IMG/VR virus record: IMGVR_UViG_3300017763_003471
Span: 1 to 64,000 of that record
DNA: 64,000 nt
Strand: one strand, 5' to 3'
Source of the DNA: an uncultured virus (IMG/VR IMGVR_UViG_3300017763_003471)
Taxonomy: Duplodnaviria; Heunggongvirae; Uroviricota; Caudoviricetes
The notes under the pieces were generated by a model. It worked only from the letters and a program-made list of their open reading frames with translations. It did not search any database and was not told the DNA's origin. Shown one piece after another: positions 3,567 to 41,778 of the stretch (its first letter is position 1; every line of letters begins with the position of its first letter). Made by a program: the position numbers and the translations under genes.

Positions 3567-3803
3567 TTAATCAAACTCTCGTAGATACTCTACTAGTTGT
3601 GCGATGTTCGAAATCTTCTCTAATCGGTCGTTGTTGAGTTCTATGTCTAGTTCGTCTTCTAGCGATACCATCATTTCTATTGCATCTAAACTGTCTATTC
3701 CTAGTTCTGAAAACTTGGTTCCCGCACTAATATGTTGTTCTGTTAGAGTTACCTCATGGTCTTTTAATGCTAGTTCTTTAAGTACTTTTAGTGTTTTACT
3801 CAT
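3567..3803 (-). CDS. acpP: acyl carrier protein
   Basis: 78 aa, acidic, LGIDSLDAIE phosphopantetheine-Ser motif, AAGGGA RBS. Confidence 0.85.
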   Translation of the reverse strand: MSKTLKVLKELALKDHEVTLTEQHISAGTKFSELGIDSLDAIEMMVSLEDELDIELNNDRLEKISNIAQLVEYLREFD

Positions 3804-28256: not shown

Positions 28257-28799
28257 TTATGCTACTAAATTAACATATTCTTCTGGCCAATCTAAATAAT
28301 TTAACCAAATATGGTGTTTTATCTTTAGTGTAAAGTTCTTTTGAGACATTAGATTATAGAAGTTTGGTTTAATTGGTGTCCTAACTGGCTTAATATCAGT
28401 ACGGGATCCCTTTGCTAGATTACATTTCTTACATGCAGATACCATATTCTCCCAACCAGACTTACCACCTTTTGACCTAGGGATAACATGATCCAGTGTA
28501 AGTTCTTTCGGAGAGAATGCATCTAAACAATATTGACAAGTATAATGGTCACGTATGAATACGTTCCTACGTGAGAAATTTATACCTTCTCTATCCTGTT
28601 GTACGTATTCACGTACGGCTATTACACTTGGAACTTTCATAGTATGATTAGGACTATGTACTTCCCAATCATCATGCCATTCAACTATATTAATCTTATC
28701 AAGCCAGATAAGTTTAATACTTTCTTGCCATGTTAGAGTAGAAAGAGGTGAGAGTCCAAGAGGTTTGTAGTCCGCATTCAATAGTAATGTATCGCTCAT
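28257..28799 (-). CDS. HNH endonuclease
   Basis: LLLNADYKPL; RNVFIRDHYTCQYC; TLDHVIPRSKGG..WENMVSACKKCN..KG. Confidence 0.92.
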   Translation of the reverse strand: MSDTLLLNADYKPLGLSPLSTLTWQESIKLIWLDKINIVEWHDDWEVHSPNHTMKVPSVIAVREYVQQDREGINFSRRNVFIRDHYTCQYCLDAFSPKELTLDHVIPRSKGGKSGWENMVSACKKCNLAKGSRTDIKPVRTPIKPNFYNLMSQKNFTLKIKHHIWLNYLDWPEEYVNLVA

Positions 28800-30192: not shown

Positions 30193-30234
30193 TATGTATA
30201 CATAATAACACGATTCTTGATATTGTCAAGTTTT
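30179..30234 (-). repeat. 56-bp promoter/leader duplication, copy 1
   Basis: Identical to 37892-37947 except 2 nt; TTGACA-16-TATTAT with GANTC. Confidence 0.9.
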
Positions 30235-31382
30235 CAACTAACTAAAATACTAGCATTTGTACCGCCAAAACCGAAGGAATTACACAATACAGACGTTATT
30301 TCTGCACTAGTTGACTTATTGTATATCTTTGGACTATATCCTTCTTCAACCTCTTCTACGTTCACCGTAGGCGGTATAATAGCATGTTTTAGAGACATTA
30401 TAGACATAGCTAACTCTACAGAACCAGCGGCTCCCATACAATGTCCTAGTTGAGATTTGTTCGCAGTAATCGGCACTTCTTGTAATCCTAGTCTATTAAT
30501 AGCATCTAATTCAGCATAATCTCCCATAGGAGTAGATGTACCGTGTACATTAATAAGACTAGGTATTCTGCCTTTTAGAGCCTCTGCCATACATTTCTGC
30601 ACTTCTTCTCCGTTAGGGTGAGGTGCGACAGTTTGATATGCATCATTGTTTACTGCATAACCATCTATCTGACAGATTGTTTTATTTGTTTTATTTTTAC
30701 TTAATAAGAATATTGCACCACCCTCACTTAATACTAAACCGTCACGTTTTGTATCATAAGGTCTTGATGCTTTTTCTGGTGTATCATTGAATTTAGTTGT
30801 CAATGCTCTTAATTTACCCATCTGTTTGAATGCATCAGGGTGTATTGTTACGTCTACTGAGCCTGCTAAAGCATGGTCTATCATTCCCATTTCAATCATC
30901 ATAGCCGCCCATATTACACTATAAACACCTGTACTACATGCGGTTAATGTCATTGCACTAGCACCAGTTAAACCATATTTCATGTTTATATTGTGTGCAA
31001 TCATATCAGGACAGTAATGATAAATGTTATCTGCATTGTCCTTATTTGCTTTTAGTATTTCTAAGTACATTGAAAAGCCTGGTGATACAATAACACCTGT
31101 TCTGCTTTTATCTATAATATCTAAATCTATCTTACTTGCTAATGCTAAAGCCCATTGATTAGATTCTGGAAGTCTATCACGTTCTGACTCAGTTATGATA
31201 GGATAATCTTCTGCATTAAAATGAAACTCGCCCGCTACTTTGCTTCGTGTATATCTACTTTCGTTTGGGTCAAACTTAGTAATAGGTCCGTATGCTACTT
31301 TGTTTTCTGTTACGCCCTTCCATGTTTGCTCTAAATCACCGAAAGGTGTAAAGCAAGACAAGTCGTTAATATATACGGTCAT
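30234..31382 (-). CDS. fabF: beta-ketoacyl-ACP synthase II
   Basis: TACSTG (Cys), SRPYD..RDG..EGG, NVHGTST, KSQLGHCMGAAG, NSFGFGGTN. Confidence 0.92.
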   Translation of the reverse strand: MTVYINDLSCFTPFGDLEQTWKGVTENKVAYGPITKFDPNESRYTRSKVAGEFHFNAEDYPIITESERDRLPESNQWALALASKIDLDIIDKSRTGVIVSPGFSMYLEILKANKDNADNIYHYCPDMIAHNINMKYGLTGASAMTLTACSTGVYSVIWAAMMIEMGMIDHALAGSVDVTIHPDAFKQMGKLRALTTKFNDTPEKASRPYDTKRDGLVLSEGGAIFLLSKNKTNKTICQIDGYAVNNDAYQTVAPHPNGEEVQKCMAEALKGRIPSLINVHGTSTPMGDYAELDAINRLGLQEVPITANKSQLGHCMGAAGSVELAMSIMSLKHAIIPPTVNVEEVEEGYSPKIYNKSTSAEITSVLCNSFGFGGTNASILVS

Positions 31383-32142
31383 GTTTTAAATCCGTTGCTA
31401 TGAAATATTTAATTACTAACCCGGTTGGGTCAAACTGATACCATTTTTCTTGTGTGGTATAACTTAAACTATTGTTATGATGATTGTTGTGCCAACCTTC
31501 TCCGAATGTAAACAATGCAAGTAACCAACTATTTTTACTATCGTCTCCTGTATCATGGTCTGCTTTACCAAATATGTGTAGCAAATGTACTATACCAAAT
31601 GTACCTACCCAGAATTGATATACACCTGTGATACCTAATACATAACCTGGTAAGATTGGATCAATTAAGAATAGTACAATCATTGCAACTGTTATAATTT
31701 GAAAATAATATCGTTGCATAAATCTTACTTGCGGATCCATATACAAGTCTTTAAAAATTCTTCTTTCTTTAGGGAAGTCTTCATAGAATCCCATTAAGTT
31801 TTCCCACCATGATTTTTCTCTTGGTGAATGAATATCCATGCCTTCTACATCTGCATATTTGTGATGCAATCTATGTCCACCTATAGTAGGAAGTGGTTTA
31901 CCTGGAAAGCCTAATGCACCCCACCAAAGAAGAAGTACTTGTCTTTTCCTTCCTGTCTGATAACTTCTGTGTGCCCAATATCTATGCCAACCAGCAAAGC
32001 CGCCTACCATAGTTGTTATACACCCCCATGCAAATGAATACCAAAAATACTCTGGCGCTGATATGATACTGTAAATTAATACAATATGCAATACAATCCA
32101 TAGTATTCTCATTTTCCAACCATATGTTATTTTATCTAGCAT
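31366..32142 (-). CDS. membrane fatty acid desaturase (delta-9-like)
   Basis: His boxes HRYWAH, HRLHH, GEGWHNNHH. Confidence 0.9.
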   Translation of the reverse strand: MLDKITYGWKMRILWIVLHIVLIYSIISAPEYFWYSFAWGCITTMVGGFAGWHRYWAHRSYQTGRKRQVLLLWWGALGFPGKPLPTIGGHRLHHKYADVEGMDIHSPREKSWWENLMGFYEDFPKERRIFKDLYMDPQVRFMQRYYFQIITVAMIVLFLIDPILPGYVLGITGVYQFWVGTFGIVHLLHIFGKADHDTGDDSKNSWLLALFTFGEGWHNNHHNNSLSYTTQEKWYQFDPTGLVIKYFIATDLKHDRIY

Positions 32143-32746
32143 ATTCTATCCTCTCACCTGTACGAAAGTTTCTCCAATTAAATCTCCAAACATCTTGCTT
32201 AATACCATACAATGGGAAATCTTTATGTAATAGAGATAACTTATCTTCATGTGGCCAAACTACATAAGCAAATCTCCATATCTTATGCATCGTACCACTT
32301 CTATCTTCACTGTGGTCTTCTGATGCAGTAGTTACTACACAATCAGTTGCACCTTGTTCTACAGCCCAATCAGCCATGAAAGGAACAAGTCTAGCAAATC
32401 CAAACTCATGATACATTCTTCTACTATTTTGTCTATCGTCTGCCATGTTTCTCCATTCAGGAAGTGTTGCTAATCTATAATTTATCATATAACATTTATC
32501 ATGTACATGAGGCAAATAATGTGCGCCTGCCATTGATACTATTTCATCCTTATGATAAACAAACCACCAATTCTCTTGCTTACCCCATTTACCAAACTTC
32601 AATGCTTTTAAACTTGCATTATTTAGAATACCTACCTTGTCACATTTCTGACAGAATTCTTCTAGGTCTGACTTTAATGTGCTATCGTATTCTACTACTT
32701 TGAATTCATAATTATCTGCACCAGTAAAAGTTTCTAATACTTTCAT
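32132..32746 (-). CDS. GNAT-like acyltransferase (putative)
   Basis: WWFVYHKDEIVSMAG...RLATLPEWR resembles GNAT strands and motif A; start at 32746 (TAATG overlap). Confidence 0.45.
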   Translation of the reverse strand: MKVLETFTGADNYEFKVVEYDSTLKSDLEEFCQKCDKVGILNNASLKALKFGKWGKQENWWFVYHKDEIVSMAGAHYLPHVHDKCYMINYRLATLPEWRNMADDRQNSRRMYHEFGFARLVPFMADWAVEQGATDCVVTTASEDHSEDRSGTMHKIWRFAYVVWPHEDKLSLLHKDFPLYGIKQDVWRFNWRNFRTGERIEYAR

Positions 32747-32916
32747 TACCACCAGCCCATCAAATGACCGTTACCTAATATAATCATTACACATGTAGCA
32801 ATGTGTAGTAGTACCCAAAAAGTTCTTATGATTAACATTTGTTTGTCATAAGGTTTTGTCTTATCATCTGAATAAGAACCTAAAGCATACTGCCATATTT
32901 TTAATAAACTTCTCAT
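32746..32916 (-). CDS. 56-aa membrane protein (not in ORF track)
   Basis: MRSLLKIWQYALGSYSDDKTKPYDKQMLIIRTFWVLLHIATCVMIILGNGHLMGWW*; coupled on both sides. Confidence 0.75.
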   Translation of the reverse strand: MRSLLKIWQYALGSYSDDKTKPYDKQMLIIRTFWVLLHIATCVMIILGNGHLMGWW

Positions 32917-33638
32917 CTTCTAGCCAACAATGCTGGTATATAATATCTGCCAGCCCAATCTGTTAAATCTTCGTGTGACATATCTAATCTACTCGCATAC
33001 TTATGATGTATGTCATGGCAACCTTCGCCCATCATCCATATGTTTGCAAAGCCAGTTAGTTTACTAGGACCACCATCTTTGTGAGCCGCATAGTTCAACC
33101 AAGTTAATGCTATCCACATGTGAGTAAAATTAAATGCTTGCCATACAACTAACCAAGGTGTTATGATAAAATGTATTAATGTAAACAATGCATATAGTTT
33201 CCAGTAATATCTATTAACAAAAACTACATCACGTTTTCTTAACAAGAAACGTAAACTAATATAATCTTCTGGTGACTTATACTGACCTAACCACATTTTA
33301 AACAATCCTAACTCTGCTGGATTGTGTGTATCTTTTTCTTTATCTGAATTCTTATGATGATTTAAATGTGAGTAAACATATTGTATAGGACTACCATTAG
33401 CACTCATAACAATACCATATAACATTGCTAAACGTCCTAGTCTATGTGGAACAAACTGGTCGTGACATAACCATCTATGATATGCAATTTGTGATAATGC
33501 ATTTGTAACACAACCATACAAAGTAAAAGCAAGAGCAAGTTGCCATGAACCACCCATATAGAAGTAAGCAGGTATTCCAATTACGGATACTGCTAACATA
33601 AAAAATACTTTCAATGTTACTCTATTTTGGTATGTCAT
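32913..33638 (-). CDS. membrane fatty acid desaturase
   Basis: His boxes HRWLCH, HLNHH, GEGCHDIHH. Confidence 0.88.
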   Translation of the reverse strand: MTYQNRVTLKVFFMLAVSVIGIPAYFYMGGSWQLALAFTLYGCVTNALSQIAYHRWLCHDQFVPHRLGRLAMLYGIVMSANGSPIQYVYSHLNHHKNSDKEKDTHNPAELGLFKMWLGQYKSPEDYISLRFLLRKRDVVFVNRYYWKLYALFTLIHFIITPWLVVWQAFNFTHMWIALTWLNYAAHKDGGPSKLTGFANIWMMGEGCHDIHHKYASRLDMSHEDLTDWAGRYYIPALLARR

Positions 33639-35314
33639 TATTTCTTTAATGCTTCCTCTAATACTTCCTCATGGCTCTTTCCGTTAAACAGAAACTTTCT
33701 ATGCCAATCATATGCATGTGGAGCCATTTCTCCTTGTGCCTCACTTAATTTTCTGCAATATTCAAACATGATATCTGCTTTATTCATTAATTCTTTTTTA
33801 GTATTTAGTTCAACTGTATCATCGAAATGCCCCATGGCAGTTGCTACAGTCATCCACATATAGTCTGGATATAAACTATTTCCTATTTGATTATAAGGGT
33901 TTTTGTATTCTTTCCATATGGCTTCTTTATGATTATGTTTCTTACCATACTCTTTTTGTTTCTTCCAAAAGTTAGTATCTTCTCTATTCGTAAGTGTATA
34001 ATGATATGCAATAAAGTCTGCAACATGGTCTTCTAAACCGTTCATACTCTTATTGTATGCATGTATACTTCCTGCTGATATAATTTCATCATCTTCTTGT
34101 TGTCGATTTACGAATCTATCTAATAATTGTATACCCCATTGTGATATGTACATTGCATTGCCTTCCATTGGTTCAATAAATGAATGACTCATTCCTATAC
34201 TTAACACATTTTTATTCCATGGTGTGACCATACGTCCTGCTTTCCATGAAATATGTTTTGGTGGTTTGATAAACTCATAACCTTCCCAATACTTTTTAAA
34301 CTTTTCCATTGCATCTTCTGGAGATATCTCAGTTCTATCAAAGATATATCCTGAACCCATTCTATTATATAATGAGATAATAAAGTTCCAACCTTCATCT
34401 TGTGCATATGTTTGTGTGTAAGGTCTAAACTCGTTATAAACATCTTTATATTTTAATGGACCAACTACTGCATCCTGTGTATGAATAAAGTCATAATCAT
34501 GCCATTCATTATTCATTCCACCTACTAATACTTTATGTAAACCTGAACAATCGACAAACAAATCGGCTTCGTGTTCTGTGCCATCTTCTAATAATAGTTT
34601 AGTAATATAACCGTCCTCATCTTTGATGATTTCTTTTACATCACCTATGATATGCTGAACACCTTTAGGTAAAGCAACTTTGTCTCTAATAAGTTCTGGA
34701 AATCTATTTGCATCTAAATGAAATGAGTATGACTGCCAGTCTCCGAGTAAAGGATTGTCATTCATATCAAATGGTGCCTTATTACCGTCCATCAGATAAT
34801 GTTGTTCATGCGTATCTTGTGAGGATTCTTTAGGATTTCTTTTACCCTCACGTACTAATTGTAACCAATAGTCATTCCATTTATCATCTACTCCTGCCTC
34901 GCCTTTAGAGTTAGTAAAATAATCATCAGTTGTTAATTGATTATAAAAACTAGATGTTAGATGTTTTTCTGGCAATGTAAATGAAAATGAATAGTATTGT
35001 ACATCTTCTTTTGGTGCGTTCCAATGGTCTGTAACATGGTGTCGTTTGCCTGGTGAACTCCAACCAACAAACTTATTGCCTAATTTATAAATTGAATTTG
35101 TATAACTCATCCAATCTCTTTCCTCAAGTCCTAAAGTTTCTAGTAAATCATTTACTTGAGGAACTACACTCTCTCCTACACCTATAATAGGAATAGTATC
35201 ACTCTCAATTATTTTAACATCTAACCAAGGGTGTTTATTTTTCATGTAACCTGCAGTGAACCAACCGTTTATTCCACCGCCAACGATTACAAGTTTGTTT
35301 AATTTAGTTTTCAT
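33638..35314 (-). CDS. tryptophan-halogenase-family flavoprotein
   Basis: IVGGGINGW, IGVGES, YKLG (catalytic-Lys position), HLDA, DLFVDCSG, FIEPMEG; WxWxIP replaced by WNFIIS. Confidence 0.85.
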   Translation of the reverse strand: MKTKLNKLVIVGGGINGWFTAGYMKNKHPWLDVKIIESDTIPIIGVGESVVPQVNDLLETLGLEERDWMSYTNSIYKLGNKFVGWSSPGKRHHVTDHWNAPKEDVQYYSFSFTLPEKHLTSSFYNQLTTDDYFTNSKGEAGVDDKWNDYWLQLVREGKRNPKESSQDTHEQHYLMDGNKAPFDMNDNPLLGDWQSYSFHLDANRFPELIRDKVALPKGVQHIIGDVKEIIKDEDGYITKLLLEDGTEHEADLFVDCSGLHKVLVGGMNNEWHDYDFIHTQDAVVGPLKYKDVYNEFRPYTQTYAQDEGWNFIISLYNRMGSGYIFDRTEISPEDAMEKFKKYWEGYEFIKPPKHISWKAGRMVTPWNKNVLSIGMSHSFIEPMEGNAMYISQWGIQLLDRFVNRQQEDDEIISAGSIHAYNKSMNGLEDHVADFIAYHYTLTNREDTNFWKKQKEYGKKHNHKEAIWKEYKNPYNQIGNSLYPDYMWMTVATAMGHFDDTVELNTKKELMNKADIMFEYCRKLSEAQGEMAPHAYDWHRKFLFNGKSHEEVLEEALKK

Positions 35315-35316
35315 AT

Positions 35317-36681
35317 CTACTCCACAAATTGTTCTTTGACAACATGTCTTTGAACTTTTCCCATAGGATTTCTAGGTAATGGGTTTTTAGTAACAATAAT
35401 TTCTTTAGGTATCTCGTACTGAAATAGTTTGTCTTTAACAAAGTCCATCAATTCAAGACTATTTATCTCGCTATCCGTACTGACTACTGCAACTATTTCT
35501 TTCTCTCCTAGACCTCTGTCACGATATGTTACACAAACTTCGTTAACATTATCATGTGGTAAAAACATATTCTCTACTCTAACAGGAGATACATTATAAC
35601 TATTAACTTTGATTAAATCAGTTTTACGTGATTTATAAAATAAAAGATTATGCTGAGTTTCTAATACATCACCAGTACACCAATAGCCATCTTTGTCTAT
35701 AGGTGTTTCTTGATTCAAGTATCCTTCTGTAACACAATCACCTTTAATCCAAGCAACACCATATCTATCTAATTTAAAATCATAGTTATCAGTAATATGA
35801 ATCTGTAAAGGATATGGATCATCTGGAGTTGCTAAGTGTGTAAACATTGGTACATGAGTTTCAGTACAACCATATAAGTTTCTTAATGCAGGTGCTCCTT
35901 TATCAAATAGTTCTTGTAGCATTTCTTTAGGACAAACTGTACTACCGAAACCTAACTCACGCCAATGAGATAAGTCTGCCTCTTTCCATCCTCTTGTTTT
36001 AGATAATGCTAACATCATAGCAGGAACAATAATACCTATAGTAGGTTTGTATTCTTTACATATTTGTATGTAACGTCTAGCATTAAACATTTCACAAATT
36101 ACTGTACACCCTTTCATTAGACCTGGAAGTGTATAAAGATACAGACCACCAATAGTCCAAGGAGGAAGTTGTGAAAGTATTACATCGTCACTTGTTAAAG
36201 TTTGTATTAGTATGTTTTGTATTGAACCTTGAATGCAAGCCATTCTAGTATGTGGGACCGCCTTAGGCTCTCCTGTAGTACCGCTAGTAAATATAACGGT
36301 ATACAAATCATCTGCACCTTTGGCAAACATTAAGCCTTTATTATGTGGCTCTAGTTTTGATGCATCGTCCTCACTTAGAATTATATGATTTGGGTGACTT
36401 GCATTCTTTATACGTTCAACTATCTCATCAGATAAATTGGGAAACGTTGGCATGAATGTTACTCCTAAGGCATCACACGCCAGCACCATTCTTACATAAT
36501 GATATTCTTTTTCACTCGCAAATAATACTCGCTCACCAGGTCTGATGGCTGTAGATAATGTAGCAGATAGTTTCTCCACACTATCAACTAATTCGCTATA
36601 TGTGTATTTCTTATCATGGCATATCAGGGCAGTTTTACTGCCGTGGATCTTTGCCTGTGCTTTAATTGTTTCCCAAATCAT
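35317..36681 (-). CDS. AMP-binding acyl-CoA/acyl-ACP ligase
   Basis: FTSGTTGEPKAV, YGCTE, TGD, R.TDLIK, LPRNPMGKV. Confidence 0.92.
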   Translation of the reverse strand: MIWETIKAQAKIHGSKTALICHDKKYTYSELVDSVEKLSATLSTAIRPGERVLFASEKEYHYVRMVLACDALGVTFMPTFPNLSDEIVERIKNASHPNHIILSEDDASKLEPHNKGLMFAKGADDLYTVIFTSGTTGEPKAVPHTRMACIQGSIQNILIQTLTSDDVILSQLPPWTIGGLYLYTLPGLMKGCTVICEMFNARRYIQICKEYKPTIGIIVPAMMLALSKTRGWKEADLSHWRELGFGSTVCPKEMLQELFDKGAPALRNLYGCTETHVPMFTHLATPDDPYPLQIHITDNYDFKLDRYGVAWIKGDCVTEGYLNQETPIDKDGYWCTGDVLETQHNLLFYKSRKTDLIKVNSYNVSPVRVENMFLPHDNVNEVCVTYRDRGLGEKEIVAVVSTDSEINSLELMDFVKDKLFQYEIPKEIIVTKNPLPRNPMGKVQRHVVKEQFVE

Positions 36682-36686
36682 ATCTA

Positions 36687-36726
36687 ATTATAACAAAAAA
36701 AAGGAGAGAAGTCAAGACCTCTCTCC
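36687..36726 (-). terminator. intrinsic terminator overlapping a sigma70 promoter
   Basis: GGAGAGAGGTC-TT-GACTTCTCTCC-T8 with embedded TTGACT-17-TATAAT; 5 nt between the -10 and the ATG at 36681. Confidence 0.85.
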
Positions 36727-36753
36727 CTTGGAAACGCAATAAAGTGTCTGCTC

Positions 36754-40803: not shown

Positions 40804-41778
40804 CTAAGACTTTTCAATTATTTGACGTTCAAACTCACGCAAACGTTTAAACACACTCATTAACTCAATAAGAGTAGGCCATGCTTTAAATAGATATTGA
40901 AGTGAACCTTCTACTCTACCGAATGCACGAATAATCTGTTGCATGACACCTAATGTCACAACCCCTGCCACAATCGCAGGTGCTAAGAACACATAGGCAC
41001 TTAATACGTTTGCTTGTAGATATGTAATACGACCTACATTAAAATACAAATAACGCAAATAAGATTTAAAATGAATTGCCCGAACGCCTTCAAACAGTTC
41101 ATTAATTGTTTTCGGTCTAACGTTACCATCATCTTCTGCAATAACTAATATCTTTCGATATGCGGCTTCTTTCTTTTGTAAGTCATATTCAACTCCTACT
41201 AGACGTAGCAACCAACCTAACCCAATTAAGAATAAAGTACCACCTACTGACCAAACAATAGCACCTGTAATCAATCCGTATTGCCAATCCCCAAAGAAGA
41301 AGATAGGAATACCTACTGATAAACCAAATAGAATAGGAACAAACTGTACTAGAACCATAATTGATTCAATGAAACTTGTACCTAATCCTTCCATGATACG
41401 TGAAAATTTAATCGTATCTTCTTGCACCCTTTGTGCGGCACCTTCAATAGTTCTTGCTTTATCATATACACTATGATACCAATCTACCATTGCAGTACGC
41501 CATCTAAATAAAAAGTGTGCAGTAAAGAAACTCACTGCTACTGCAATAGCAACATATATCATTGCTAGATATATAAAAGTTCCTAAACTAGCCCAATACT
41601 CACCAATAGTGATAGCATTGGGTGTTGCTAAGGCTTTTTGAATCATATCATAAAACTGACCAAACCATTCGTTAATCTTAACATCAATCTCAACTTGTAT
41701 CCAGAGTGATGATAGGATTAATGCTGACCCTAACCAAGACCATAAGGCCCATTCTTTCTGTGTAAAAAATCTAAACAT
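40804..41778 (-). CDS. sbmA: SbmA/BacA-family peptide transporter
   Basis: INEWFGQFYDMIQKAL, FRWRTAM, IEGAAQRVQEDT, EAAYRK, RAFGRVEGSLQYL..W..LIELMSVFKRL. Confidence 0.9.
   Translation of the reverse strand: MFRFFTQKEWALWSWLGSALILSSLWIQVEIDVKINEWFGQFYDMIQKALATPNAITIGEYWASLGTFIYLAMIYVAIAVAVSFFTAHFLFRWRTAMVDWYHSVYDKARTIEGAAQRVQEDTIKFSRIMEGLGTSFIESIMVLVQFVPILFGLSVGIPIFFFGDWQYGLITGAIVWSVGGTLFLIGLGWLLRLVGVEYDLQKKEAAYRKILVIAEDDGNVRPKTINELFEGVRAIHFKSYLRYLYFNVGRITYLQANVLSAYVFLAPAIVAGVVTLGVMQQIIRAFGRVEGSLQYLFKAWPTLIELMSVFKRLREFERQIIEKS

Follow-up and report, generated by a model that had tools for sequence, protein, structure and literature searches.

Do phages encode small biosynthetic pathways of their own, or do the metabolic genes that they carry act singly on the metabolism of the host? 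The latter is the usual pattern, an auxiliary gene of a phage commonly supplying one enzyme that boosts the host. The question is raised by a locus in an uncultured member of the Caudoviricetes, held as IMG/VR virus record IMGVR_UViG_3300017763_003471. The record spans 138.6 kb and is estimated to be 38 % complete; its first 64 kb (64,000 nucleotides) form the stretch analysed here, referred to below as the window. At positions 36681..30234, the window holds seven co-directional open reading frames (ORFs) on the minus strand, joined by overlaps of 1-17 nt or by a 2-nt gap. In order of transcription, they encode an adenylate-forming ligase, a flavin-dependent halogenase, a desaturase-like protein (Des1), a small hydrophobic protein of 56 amino acids, a protein of 206 amino acids (X206), a second desaturase (Des2) and a FabF-like ketosynthase (KS). 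A sequence-only reading of the window had placed the frames exactly there, and had described them as a tightly coupled fatty-acyl cassette with its own promoter and a GNAT-like protein; its gene content, coupling, promoter and GNAT-like assignment have all proved correct. What the cassette does is less plain. With a probability of roughly 55 %, it is one phage-encoded biosynthetic operon for a carrier-protein-linked route to a halogenated acyl amide or ester.

Conservation of a four-gene core

For comparison, 30 distinct viral contigs bearing the cassette were collected, 26 loci through a scan based on the halogenase and four more through a scan based on X206, with genes counted by tblastn. 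Ligase, halogenase and X206 are encoded in all 30, and KS in 29, the remaining contig (L015) ending before the gene. Gene order is constant, and the slot always lies between a MoxR-like ATPase gene and a DUF2201 gene, in relatives reaching down to 40-60 % amino-acid identity. The X206 gene always stands just upstream of the KS gene, with the Des2 gene intervening in the window's own group. The conserved core therefore consists of ligase, halogenase, X206 and KS. The sequence-only reading was to be given up if its genes did not co-occur elsewhere and gave only ordinary delta-9 unsaturation; they do co-occur, in the same order, in these 30 viral contigs.

Compared with three relatives, every cassette gene has a ratio of nonsynonymous to synonymous substitution rates (dN/dS) of 0.058-0.220, next to 0.064-0.183 for the flanking core genes, and the cassette is, by this estimate, under purifying selection. 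It evolves faster than its flanks, and X206 is the fastest of its genes (40-58 % identity between groups). In the cultured phage PA5oct, three small ORFs and a homing endonuclease occupy the space between the ATPase and DUF2201 genes, and since this content is unrelated to the cassette, the slot is a variable one. A functional link between the cassette and the flanking ATPase and DUF2201 genes was also considered, and was rejected because these genes are conserved neighbours in cultured jumbo phages such as PA5oct, with other genes between them.

Ligase, ketosynthase and carrier proteins

The first core gene (35317..36681, minus strand) encodes an ANL-superfamily adenylate-forming ligase of 454 amino acids, with matches to Pfam AMP-binding (PF00501, E 7.5e-49) and AMP-binding_C (PF13193). 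Both the N- and the C-terminal domain and the adenylation motifs are present, which places the protein among the ANL adenylate-forming enzymes. All 16 distinct homologues retain NLYGCTE, TGD, the hinge Asp and the C-terminal GK; in each, TSGTTGEPK survives as TSGT-x-G-x-P, with a serine in place of its lysine in five. The ligase falls below every NCBIfam cut-off (the best score is 206.8 bits vs 476), and its best PDB matches are 4-coumarate-CoA ligase (E 5.8e-29), feruloyl-CoA synthetase, FadD13 and MenE. At 454 amino acids, it is short for a fatty acyl-AMP ligase.

The fourth core gene (30234..31382, minus strand) encodes a FabF-like beta-ketoacyl synthase of 382 amino acids, in which the N- and C-terminal ketoacyl-synt domains (PF00109 and PF02801) are recognized at E 1e-26 each and which can be aligned over its entire length with FabF structures (E 2e-52). 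Its Cys (TACSTG) and its two His residues (VHGTST and LGHCMG) align with those of FabF 4jga, and the triad is kept, along with SFGFGG, in 16/16 homologues; a Cys-His-His triad indicates a decarboxylative enzyme. The scores against the FabF equivalogs lie well below their cut-offs (TIGR03150, 249.6 bits vs 493.75; PRK07314, 254.9 vs 387), and the protein is a member of the FabF/FabB superfamily that is not fileable as FabF. The KS does not represent a copied host FabF: it is below all NCBIfam FabF cut-offs, and GenBank phages offer only matches of about 30 % identity.

A wider view of the machinery comes from G001, a complete relative of 342,607 bp with direct terminal repeats, whose DNA is 99.977 % identical across 21.7 kb around the cassette. 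This genome encodes exactly one KS (a single PF00109 match), one halogenase and two ANL enzymes, and it also encodes three acyl carrier proteins (ACPs) and one AcpS (TIGR00516, 85.7 bits vs 59.8). One of the three, ACP1 (3567..3803, minus strand), lies in the window, 26 kb from the cassette, and is a candidate carrier only; it is a protein of 78 amino acids with a DSL motif that scores 47.2 bits with PF00550 and 47.3 bits, below the cut-off, with the NCBIfam acyl_carrier model. An ACP is also encoded by eight of nine other cassette-bearing contig fragments. A flavodoxin and an FNR-like protein are encoded elsewhere in the genome.

The halogenase

The second core gene (33638..35314, minus strand) encodes a flavin-dependent halogenase of 558 amino acids. 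Its membership of the Trp_halogenase family is clear, with 296.4 bits against a cut-off of 21 for PF04820 (E 4.8e-88, residues 7-497) and an E of 5.1e-92 for phrog_2928. PyrH, PrnA and Thal are matched in the PDB at E ~1e-55 and VirX1 at E 3.6e-49, the HMMER alignments to PrnA and PyrH ending near residue 455. The GxGxxG motif (GGGINGW), the Lys of YKLGNKF and the Glu of EPME are invariant in 17/17 distinct phage homologues. The Lys aligns with that of FKAAIKF in PrnA, and the Glu of FIEPMEG with that of FLEPLES; the catalytic Lys of flavin halogenases is named K79 in PMC8407142. By eye, no stretch of the YYHG type is present, and in a table of PMC8269204 the protein looks more like the rows of indole halogenases (SVVPQV, YSFSF; BrvH, VirX1 and the Xcc enzymes) than like those of true Trp halogenases. 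With the CmlS equivalog (NF033113 halo_ClmS) it shares the N-terminal flavin motif only, scoring 26.5 bits vs 900. When bacterial counterparts were sought by halogenase alignment, one genome-contig locus was found, at 30 % identity in a Marinicaulis metagenome-assembled genome (MAG).

A swap of the halogenase allele is seen in one related locus. The allele at L016:10001-11695 is 64 % identical to that of the window and 96 % identical to that of L014, although the neighbouring L016 genes are 93-97 % identical to those of the window (ligase 94 %) and the cassette is otherwise collinear.

X206, a GNAT-fold protein linked to adenylating enzymes

The third core gene (32132..32752, minus strand) was called from a GTG as 206 amino acids; according to the family alignment, its start is probably the ATG at 32746. 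X206 belongs to no Pfam, NCBIfam or PHROG family, 12 of its distant relatives likewise have none in PHROGs, and its sequence matches in the PDB are at chance level. Structure prediction was more informative. An AlphaFold (AF2) model built from an 18-sequence alignment reached a mean predicted local distance difference test score (pLDDT) of 90.1 and a predicted template-modelling score of 0.87. Foldseek returned 182 PDB matches at E<=0.001, headed by GNAT acetyltransferases at probability 1.0, and VIA-align, which is independent of Foldseek, gave Z 11.6 for GNATs (root-mean-square deviation 3.2 over 151 residues) and Z 10.0 for the N-acyl amino acid synthase FeeM. By its model, X206 has a GNAT fold, and these results bear out the earlier 'GNAT-like' call. 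Among the Pfam GNAT models, Acetyltransf_7 gives a sub-threshold match in the L022 orthologue (E 0.0042), and the distant relative P0019 passes Acetyltransf_1 (25.2 bits vs 20.7). The loop after strand 4 reads WRNMA and is followed by an insertion (pLDDT 73-74).

The family to which X206 belongs appears to be confined to viruses. An exhaustive profile search yielded 141 cluster representatives (E<=1e-10 for 71); the ten that were looked up are all metagenomic, and none has a functional name. Its closest clusters in the ESM-Atlas come from viruses (Uroviricota), and no Pfam family is assigned to 28 of 30. The family was not found in GenBank phages, in the Marinicaulis MAG or in 401 sampled genomes of that MAG's phylum. 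For two distant members of the family, P0018 and P0014, no loci were found in viral contigs, nor, for P0014, in metagenome contigs. X206 is assigned to a new GNAT-fold family, seen only in viruses.

Three independent observations connect X206 with adenylating enzymes. Besides the operon itself, there is a fusion protein (P0119) in which an ANL domain (E 9.4e-16) is followed by an X206 domain, and there is a second adjacent pair in the same genome, where an X206 paralogue (G000:73742-74290; 182 amino acids; profile E 3.6e-11; 23 % identity) is followed by a short ANL enzyme (74265-74975; 236 amino acids). A complex prediction for the ligase with X206 scored 0.00, a result that counts neither for nor against binding.

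These links bear on two other roles that X206 might have. GNAT loading domains of some polyketide synthases (PKSs) decarboxylate malonyl-ACP, and X206 might similarly be a decarboxylase or priming enzyme that prepares the starter for the KS, the ligase and halogenase then making and tailoring a small polyketide-type acid. Such a role would suit a GNAT fold devoid of the canonical acetyl-CoA loop, a gene always found just upstream of that for the KS, and the invariance of His82, Thr96 and Arg93 in the close family. However, the fusion and the second pair connect X206 with adenylating enzymes rather than with a KS, the second locus has no KS at all, the top structural neighbours are N-acyltransferases, including FeeM at the Z-score given above, and across the wide family only N44, R93 and Q186 are invariant; the role is thus considered distinctly unlikely. 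Neither a PKS-loading GNAT decarboxylase nor a LuxI-type acyl-homoserine-lactone synthase is among the top 50 structural matches of X206, which does not in itself exclude either. The other possibility is phage-directed lipidation, in which X206 would acylate a macromolecule (a virion or host protein, or a component of the cell envelope) with the tailored chain. Many of the nearest structural neighbours are indeed protein N-acetyltransferases (PAT, NatA and RimI), and the rapid evolution of X206 within the core would be expected of an enzyme that tracks a variable partner. The fold match is nevertheless generic for GNATs, no target is identifiable, and the halogenase would have no obvious role, all of which leaves lipidation a very unlikely function.

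Other members of the X206 family occur in further arrangements. The paralogue and its ANL enzyme open a second possible pathway locus at G000:73742-80197 (plus strand; L003:9742-16197), which continues with seven co-directional ORFs without a known family and a PP-loop/QueC-like ATPase (195 amino acids). In the metagenome proteins P0066 and P0085, an X206-family domain is fused to an N-terminal domain of about 235 amino acids, and a shorter piece of this N-terminal domain precedes the X206 domain in P0089.

Desaturases and other accessory genes

Des2 (31366..32142, minus strand; 258 amino acids) is a membrane desaturase of the SCD-like (Delta-9 acyl-CoA) family. It scores 42.7 bits against a cut-off of 29.7 for PF00487 (FA_desaturase) and matches the mouse (E 1.1e-19) and human (E 1.8e-18) SCD1 structures over residues 4-256, and its HRYWAH, HRLHH, HNNHH and HLLH motifs align with those of SCD1, so that both the family and the di-iron His boxes are recognizable. 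Des1 (32913..33638, minus strand; 241 amino acids) has no Pfam or PDB match of its own. It is a full-length, 26 %-identical paralogue of Des2 (E 9e-18) whose His boxes (HRWLCH, HLNHH and HDIHH, plus NYAAH) align with those of Des2, and is classed as a desaturase-like integral-membrane di-iron protein. The His boxes are kept in the orthologues of each desaturase clade; in the divergent single desaturase of L021, box 1 reads HIYLAH. The nearest cellular relatives of Des2 are 31-41 % identical and carry the source names acyl-CoA or stearoyl-CoA desaturase. In a quick tree, 41 cellular SCD-like desaturases fell on one side of a branch (SH-like approximate likelihood-ratio test, 99) and the phage desaturases formed four deep lineages outside them, Des1 being a deep clade of its own; as the phage branches are long, their placement is unsure.

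Unlike the core, the desaturases come and go. Two are encoded in 10 of the 30 contigs, at least one in L015 (where the contig ends early), a single one in five and none in 14. The single desaturases are of a third type in four contigs and of a fourth type, encoded after the KS, in L021. With two, one or none per cassette, the desaturases are best seen as optional tailoring enzymes. The 56-amino-acid hydrophobic protein (32746..32916, minus strand; phrog_1679, E 2.3e-09) is encoded in only 3 of 26 related loci (L007, L015 and L016) and is probably not part of the pathway; the small membrane protein that the sequence-only reading counted in the cassette is therefore present there, but as a sporadic phage gene.

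A further protein of about 268 amino acids, without a Pfam family, is encoded downstream of the KS in several relatives (L028:13559-14365, L023:13440-14252, L024:13559-14359, L031:13577-14377 and L022:15982-16803). It follows the KS directly in desaturase-less relatives and comes after a further gene of 332 amino acids in L022, which has two desaturases. It was not found in the window's 138-kb record, and it may be an alternative tailoring enzyme.

The presence of desaturases invites the view that the genes are independent auxiliary metabolic genes (AMGs) that remodel the membrane lipids of the host. The KS and the ligase, as an acyl-ACP synthetase, would sustain or redirect fatty-acid synthesis, the desaturases would adjust fluidity, and the halogenase and X206 would be unrelated genes sharing the slot. 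Lipid desaturases are already recognized among phage AMGs (PMC5776448), and an FA_desaturase-domain protein of Pelagibacter phage Mosig is 24 % identical to Des2. The window is crowded with AMGs, the slot is filled with unrelated genes in PA5oct, and the cassette contains neither FabD nor an ACP. This view is difficult to reconcile, however, with four core genes that are never apart in the 30 contigs though the desaturases vary, with a KS that is only about 30 % identical to FabFs and below the family cut-offs, unlike a recent capture from a host, with the link of X206 to adenylating enzymes by fusion and a second pair, and with desaturases that form deep phage-only lineages outside the 41 cellular sequences. 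It is judged unlikely.

Desaturases are also central to the pathway with which the sequence-only reading had compared the cassette, i.e. that for the jamaicamide starter unit in cyanobacteria. There, JamA, JamB and JamC provide a precedent for a ligase, a membrane desaturase and an ACP working together (bioRxiv 10.1101/291195, PMC10088813), and, with JamD, which mediates the terminal bromination of alkynes (PMC12645471), a flavin halogenase acts on the same acyl unit. By analogy, the ligase would load a short fatty acid on to an ACP, a desaturase or acetylenase would convert it to a terminal alkene or alkyne, the halogenase would halogenate it, and the KS and GNAT would pass it on. The enzyme classes are the same, and the phage does encode ACPs and an AcpS. 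Yet desaturases are not obligatory, 14/30 contigs having none and 5/30 a single one, whereas the halogenase is universal, and the substrate of the halogenase thus cannot depend on a desaturase. Moreover, there is no PP-binding domain, and hence no ACP, in 30234-36681, no PKS or non-ribosomal peptide synthetase (NRPS) follows, the genome has a single KS, and the halogenase is nearest to Trp/indole halogenases. A pathway of this kind is highly improbable for the phage. As an interpretation, the earlier comparison was sound in its gene set, coupling and co-occurrence, and was not supported in the jamABCD specifics, which put an ACP and a desaturase at the centre: the cassette has no ACP, its desaturases are dispensable, its halogenase belongs by sequence to the free-substrate Trp/indole branch, and nothing points specifically to the formation of an alkyne. 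Nor had the earlier reading set the four-gene core apart from the other genes. The jamABCD analogy holds loosely, by enzyme class only, since the phage has no operon ACP, optional desaturases, a core of standalone KS and GNAT-fold protein, and no PKS or NRPS thereafter.

A proposed route to a halogenated acyl amide or ester

Under the preferred reading, that of a single carrier-linked biosynthetic operon, the genes would be expressed from their own promoter during infection. The ANL ligase would first adenylate a carboxylic acid and load the resulting acyl group on to a thiol carrier, most probably a phage ACP made holo by the phage AcpS, or alternatively coenzyme A (CoA). The KS would then condense the acyl group with malonyl-ACP supplied by the host to give a beta-ketoacyl thioester, longer by one C2 unit. 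In some lineages only, one or two SCD-like desaturases would unsaturate the chain. X206 would next hand the acyl group over to an acceptor, either an amine or a hydroxyl, so that an amide or ester results. Finally, the halogenase would act on an electron-rich position; homology makes an indole-like or other aromatic group the likeliest target, and the acceptor could plausibly provide it. On chemical grounds, another attractive candidate is the enolisable C2 of the beta-keto thioester that the KS would form. The scheme is a proposal as to substrate, order of steps, carrier, acceptor and halide alike, and the product might serve as a signal, an antibiotic or a modification of membrane or virion.

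Several observations weigh against this scheme. Some concern the individual enzymes. The acyl-CoA pyrophosphate loop of GNATs has the consensus Q/RxxGxG/A; X206 is without this canonical loop, and its residues 97-116 are the least confident part of the model. In the halogenase, the WxWxIP motif reads GWNFIIS, and W-x-F-x-I-[S/P/T] in 17/17 homologues, so the earlier statement that the catalytic motifs are largely intact applies to all of the motifs except this one. The motif or its variants are missing from a number of flavin-dependent halogenases, some of them active (PMC8407142), and the alteration therefore does not exclude halogenase activity. By sequence, the halogenase groups with Trp/indole halogenases that act on free substrates, and its 30 PDB matches at E<=1e-5 include neither CmlS nor PltA nor any other halogenase of the carrier or enolate type.

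Other observations concern the pathway as a whole. No gene for an ACP, a thioesterase, a reductase or the making of an acceptor is present within the cassette. In G001, the three ACPs are encoded 27-160 kb away, beside other clusters and none adjacent, so that their assignment to the cassette is a guess. The complete genome has no FabD (PF00698) and no PF01613 flavin reductase, and the host must therefore supply malonyl-ACP and FADH2. The KS and halogenase are linked to the ligase-X206 pair by adjacency alone, and phages pack unrelated genes tightly. Finally, in the RNA libraries described below, coverage of the cassette is patchy, some bins being empty; the contigs carry neither strand nor level, and carry-over of DNA is possible.

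Transcription unit and expression

The cassette is one unit between two near-consensus promoters, with a terminator hairpin directly upstream. The sigma-70-type cassette promoter (36687..36715, minus strand) reads TTGACT-17-TATAAT, matching the consensus at 11 of 12 positions, with an extended -10 TG. It overlaps a terminator-like hairpin (36700..36729, minus strand; 13-bp stem and T-run) that ends the upstream AAA-ATPase gene and whose loop and 3' arm contain the -35 hexamer of the cassette. The next near-consensus promoter (30202..30229, minus strand; TTGACA-16-TATTAT with TG) starts the downstream DUF2201 gene and sets the 3' limit of the unit. Promoter-like sites are not enriched across the region (54 found vs 50.7 expected in shuffles), and the case for the cassette promoter consequently rests on the quality of the site, its position and its conservation in relatives. 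Among 16 distinct intergenic sequences from related loci, six retain the composite of promoter and hairpin (L007, L008 and L014-L017). In these and in the window, the start codon lies 5-9 nt past the -10 element. For the ligase of the window, the ATG is 5 nt past it, and the transcript of the first gene may therefore be leaderless.

Short contigs at least 99 % identical to parts of the ligase, halogenase, Des1, X206/Des2 and flanking genes were recovered from four RNA-library runs, two of which (X15 and X16) represent one sample and one of which (X18) resembles a copy of another (X17). Three RNA-library contigs end at 36680, 36674 and 36668, adjoining the ATG at 36681. These ends would agree with leaderless transcription starting at the predicted promoter, and give a weak hint of it.

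The phage and its other metabolic genes

The cassette is carried by a marine jumbo phage. The phage origin taken for granted by the sequence-only reading is confirmed by the IMG/VR virus record and by a family-B DNA polymerase that shows 42-48 % identity with its counterparts in Sinorhizobium phage Phosso, Agrobacterium phage Atu_ph07 and Rak2-like jumbo phages. Several studies have yielded near-identical DNA, in 14 metagenome runs of marine or viral material.

Metabolic genes are densely packed in the genome, those of the window including thyA and genes for dihydrofolate reductase, S-adenosylmethionine (SAM) synthetase, flavodoxin and permeases. A large plus-strand cluster at 3567-25235, with the ACP1 gene divergent upstream, resembles another biosynthetic island. 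It encodes a cupin-like protein, a DUF6071 protein, a carbamoyltransferase, a 925-amino-acid protein with a weak GT2 match, RpiB, seven radical-SAM proteins (three with SPASM), two Asp/Asn beta-hydroxylase-like proteins and an aminotransferase-like protein. On the minus strand, the window also has a full-length gene for an SbmA/BacA-family inner-membrane transporter (40804-41778, E 1.7e-138) and, flanked by conserved phage genes a little downstream of DUF2201, one for an HNH endonuclease (28257-28799, E 2.5e-15). Elsewhere in the same phage, G000:133169-136015 encodes a full PutA of 948 amino acids (proline dehydrogenase and aldehyde dehydrogenase), and further metabolic or chaperone genes lie at 81081-81545, 71206-71586, 84687-86055 and 101934-104150; these specify a plastocyanin/azurin-like copper protein, NifU and two IscA-like Fe-S assembly proteins adjoining ACP2, and a ClpB-like chaperone.

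Relation to known systems and significance

Parts of the proposed route have counterparts in known systems. In the dichloroacetyl sub-cluster for chloramphenicol, the AMP-ligase CmlK, the putative ACP CmlM, CmlJ and the flavin halogenase CmlS are thought to act through enolate chemistry on an enolisable thioester, with subsequent transfer to an amine (PMC4249514, PMC8407142). That sub-cluster differs in being bacterial and in having no KS, GNAT or desaturase, and the phage halogenase matches neither the CmlS model nor its PDB entry. For amide formation, the precedent is SbzI, a GNAT that uses a carrier-protein-bound acyl donor supplied by an adenylating enzyme (PMC11685415); the GNAT fold is shared by SbzI, FeeM and X206, with FeeM among the structural matches reported above, but X206 has no detectable sequence relationship with them and belongs to its own virus-only family.

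Among viral enzymes, the closest parallels are VirX1, a flavin halogenase from cyanophage Syn10 (PMC8407142), and the 'tryptophan halogenases' of cyanophages and pelagiphages, which share the Pfam and PHROG family and the marine phage setting, with relatives in 58 GenBank phage records. By eye, the signature stretches resemble those of the indole-halogenase group, which has no Trp-binding motifs (PMC8269204). The cyanophage and pelagiphage enzymes differ, however, in being 28-30 % identical to that of the cassette and in adjoining 2-oxoglutarate-Fe(II) oxygenases rather than a ligase, GNAT or KS. Cyanophage lipid desaturases (PMC5776448) are, like Des1 and Des2, phage-borne membrane fatty-acid desaturases, whereas Des1 (241 amino acids) and Des2 (258 amino acids) are short, lie inside a biosynthetic operon and form deep lineages apart from the cellular SCD-like enzymes. 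Literature searches found no paper describing this gene combination, and GenBank phages gave no blastn match to the cassette, no relative of X206 and no comparable ligase or KS, in agreement with the earlier remark that no described phage pathway has the complete set. Thus, viral flavin halogenases and phage desaturases were already known, and what the cassette would add is a virus-borne, ACP-type acyl-tailoring pathway built around a new GNAT-fold family.

If the genes only remodel host lipids, the finding amounts to a richer but ordinary AMG island. As it stands, the cassette offers a genomic context for viral or orphan 'tryptophan halogenases', X206 defines a GNAT-fold family that is new, restricted to viruses and connected with adenylating enzymes through a fusion, and the genes, at about 6.4 kb in addition to ACP and AcpS, form a set compact enough to be directly expressed and assayed. 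The fullest statement of the case, that abundant marine jumbo phages make their own halogenated lipo-amide or ester during infection by means of the ligase, KS, X206, halogenase, ACPs and AcpS, can be put forward only tentatively. If it is true, this would be the first carrier-protein-dependent pathway for a halogenated secondary metabolite native to a lytic virus, and the first genomic context to hint at the native role of orphan viral flavin halogenases; swaps of halogenase allele and desaturase type between phages would, in that case, diversify the product. With a conserved operon of four enzymes and optional tailoring enzymes, kept by purifying selection throughout a widespread marine jumbo-phage clade, viruses would be running natural-product pathways of their own, if small ones.

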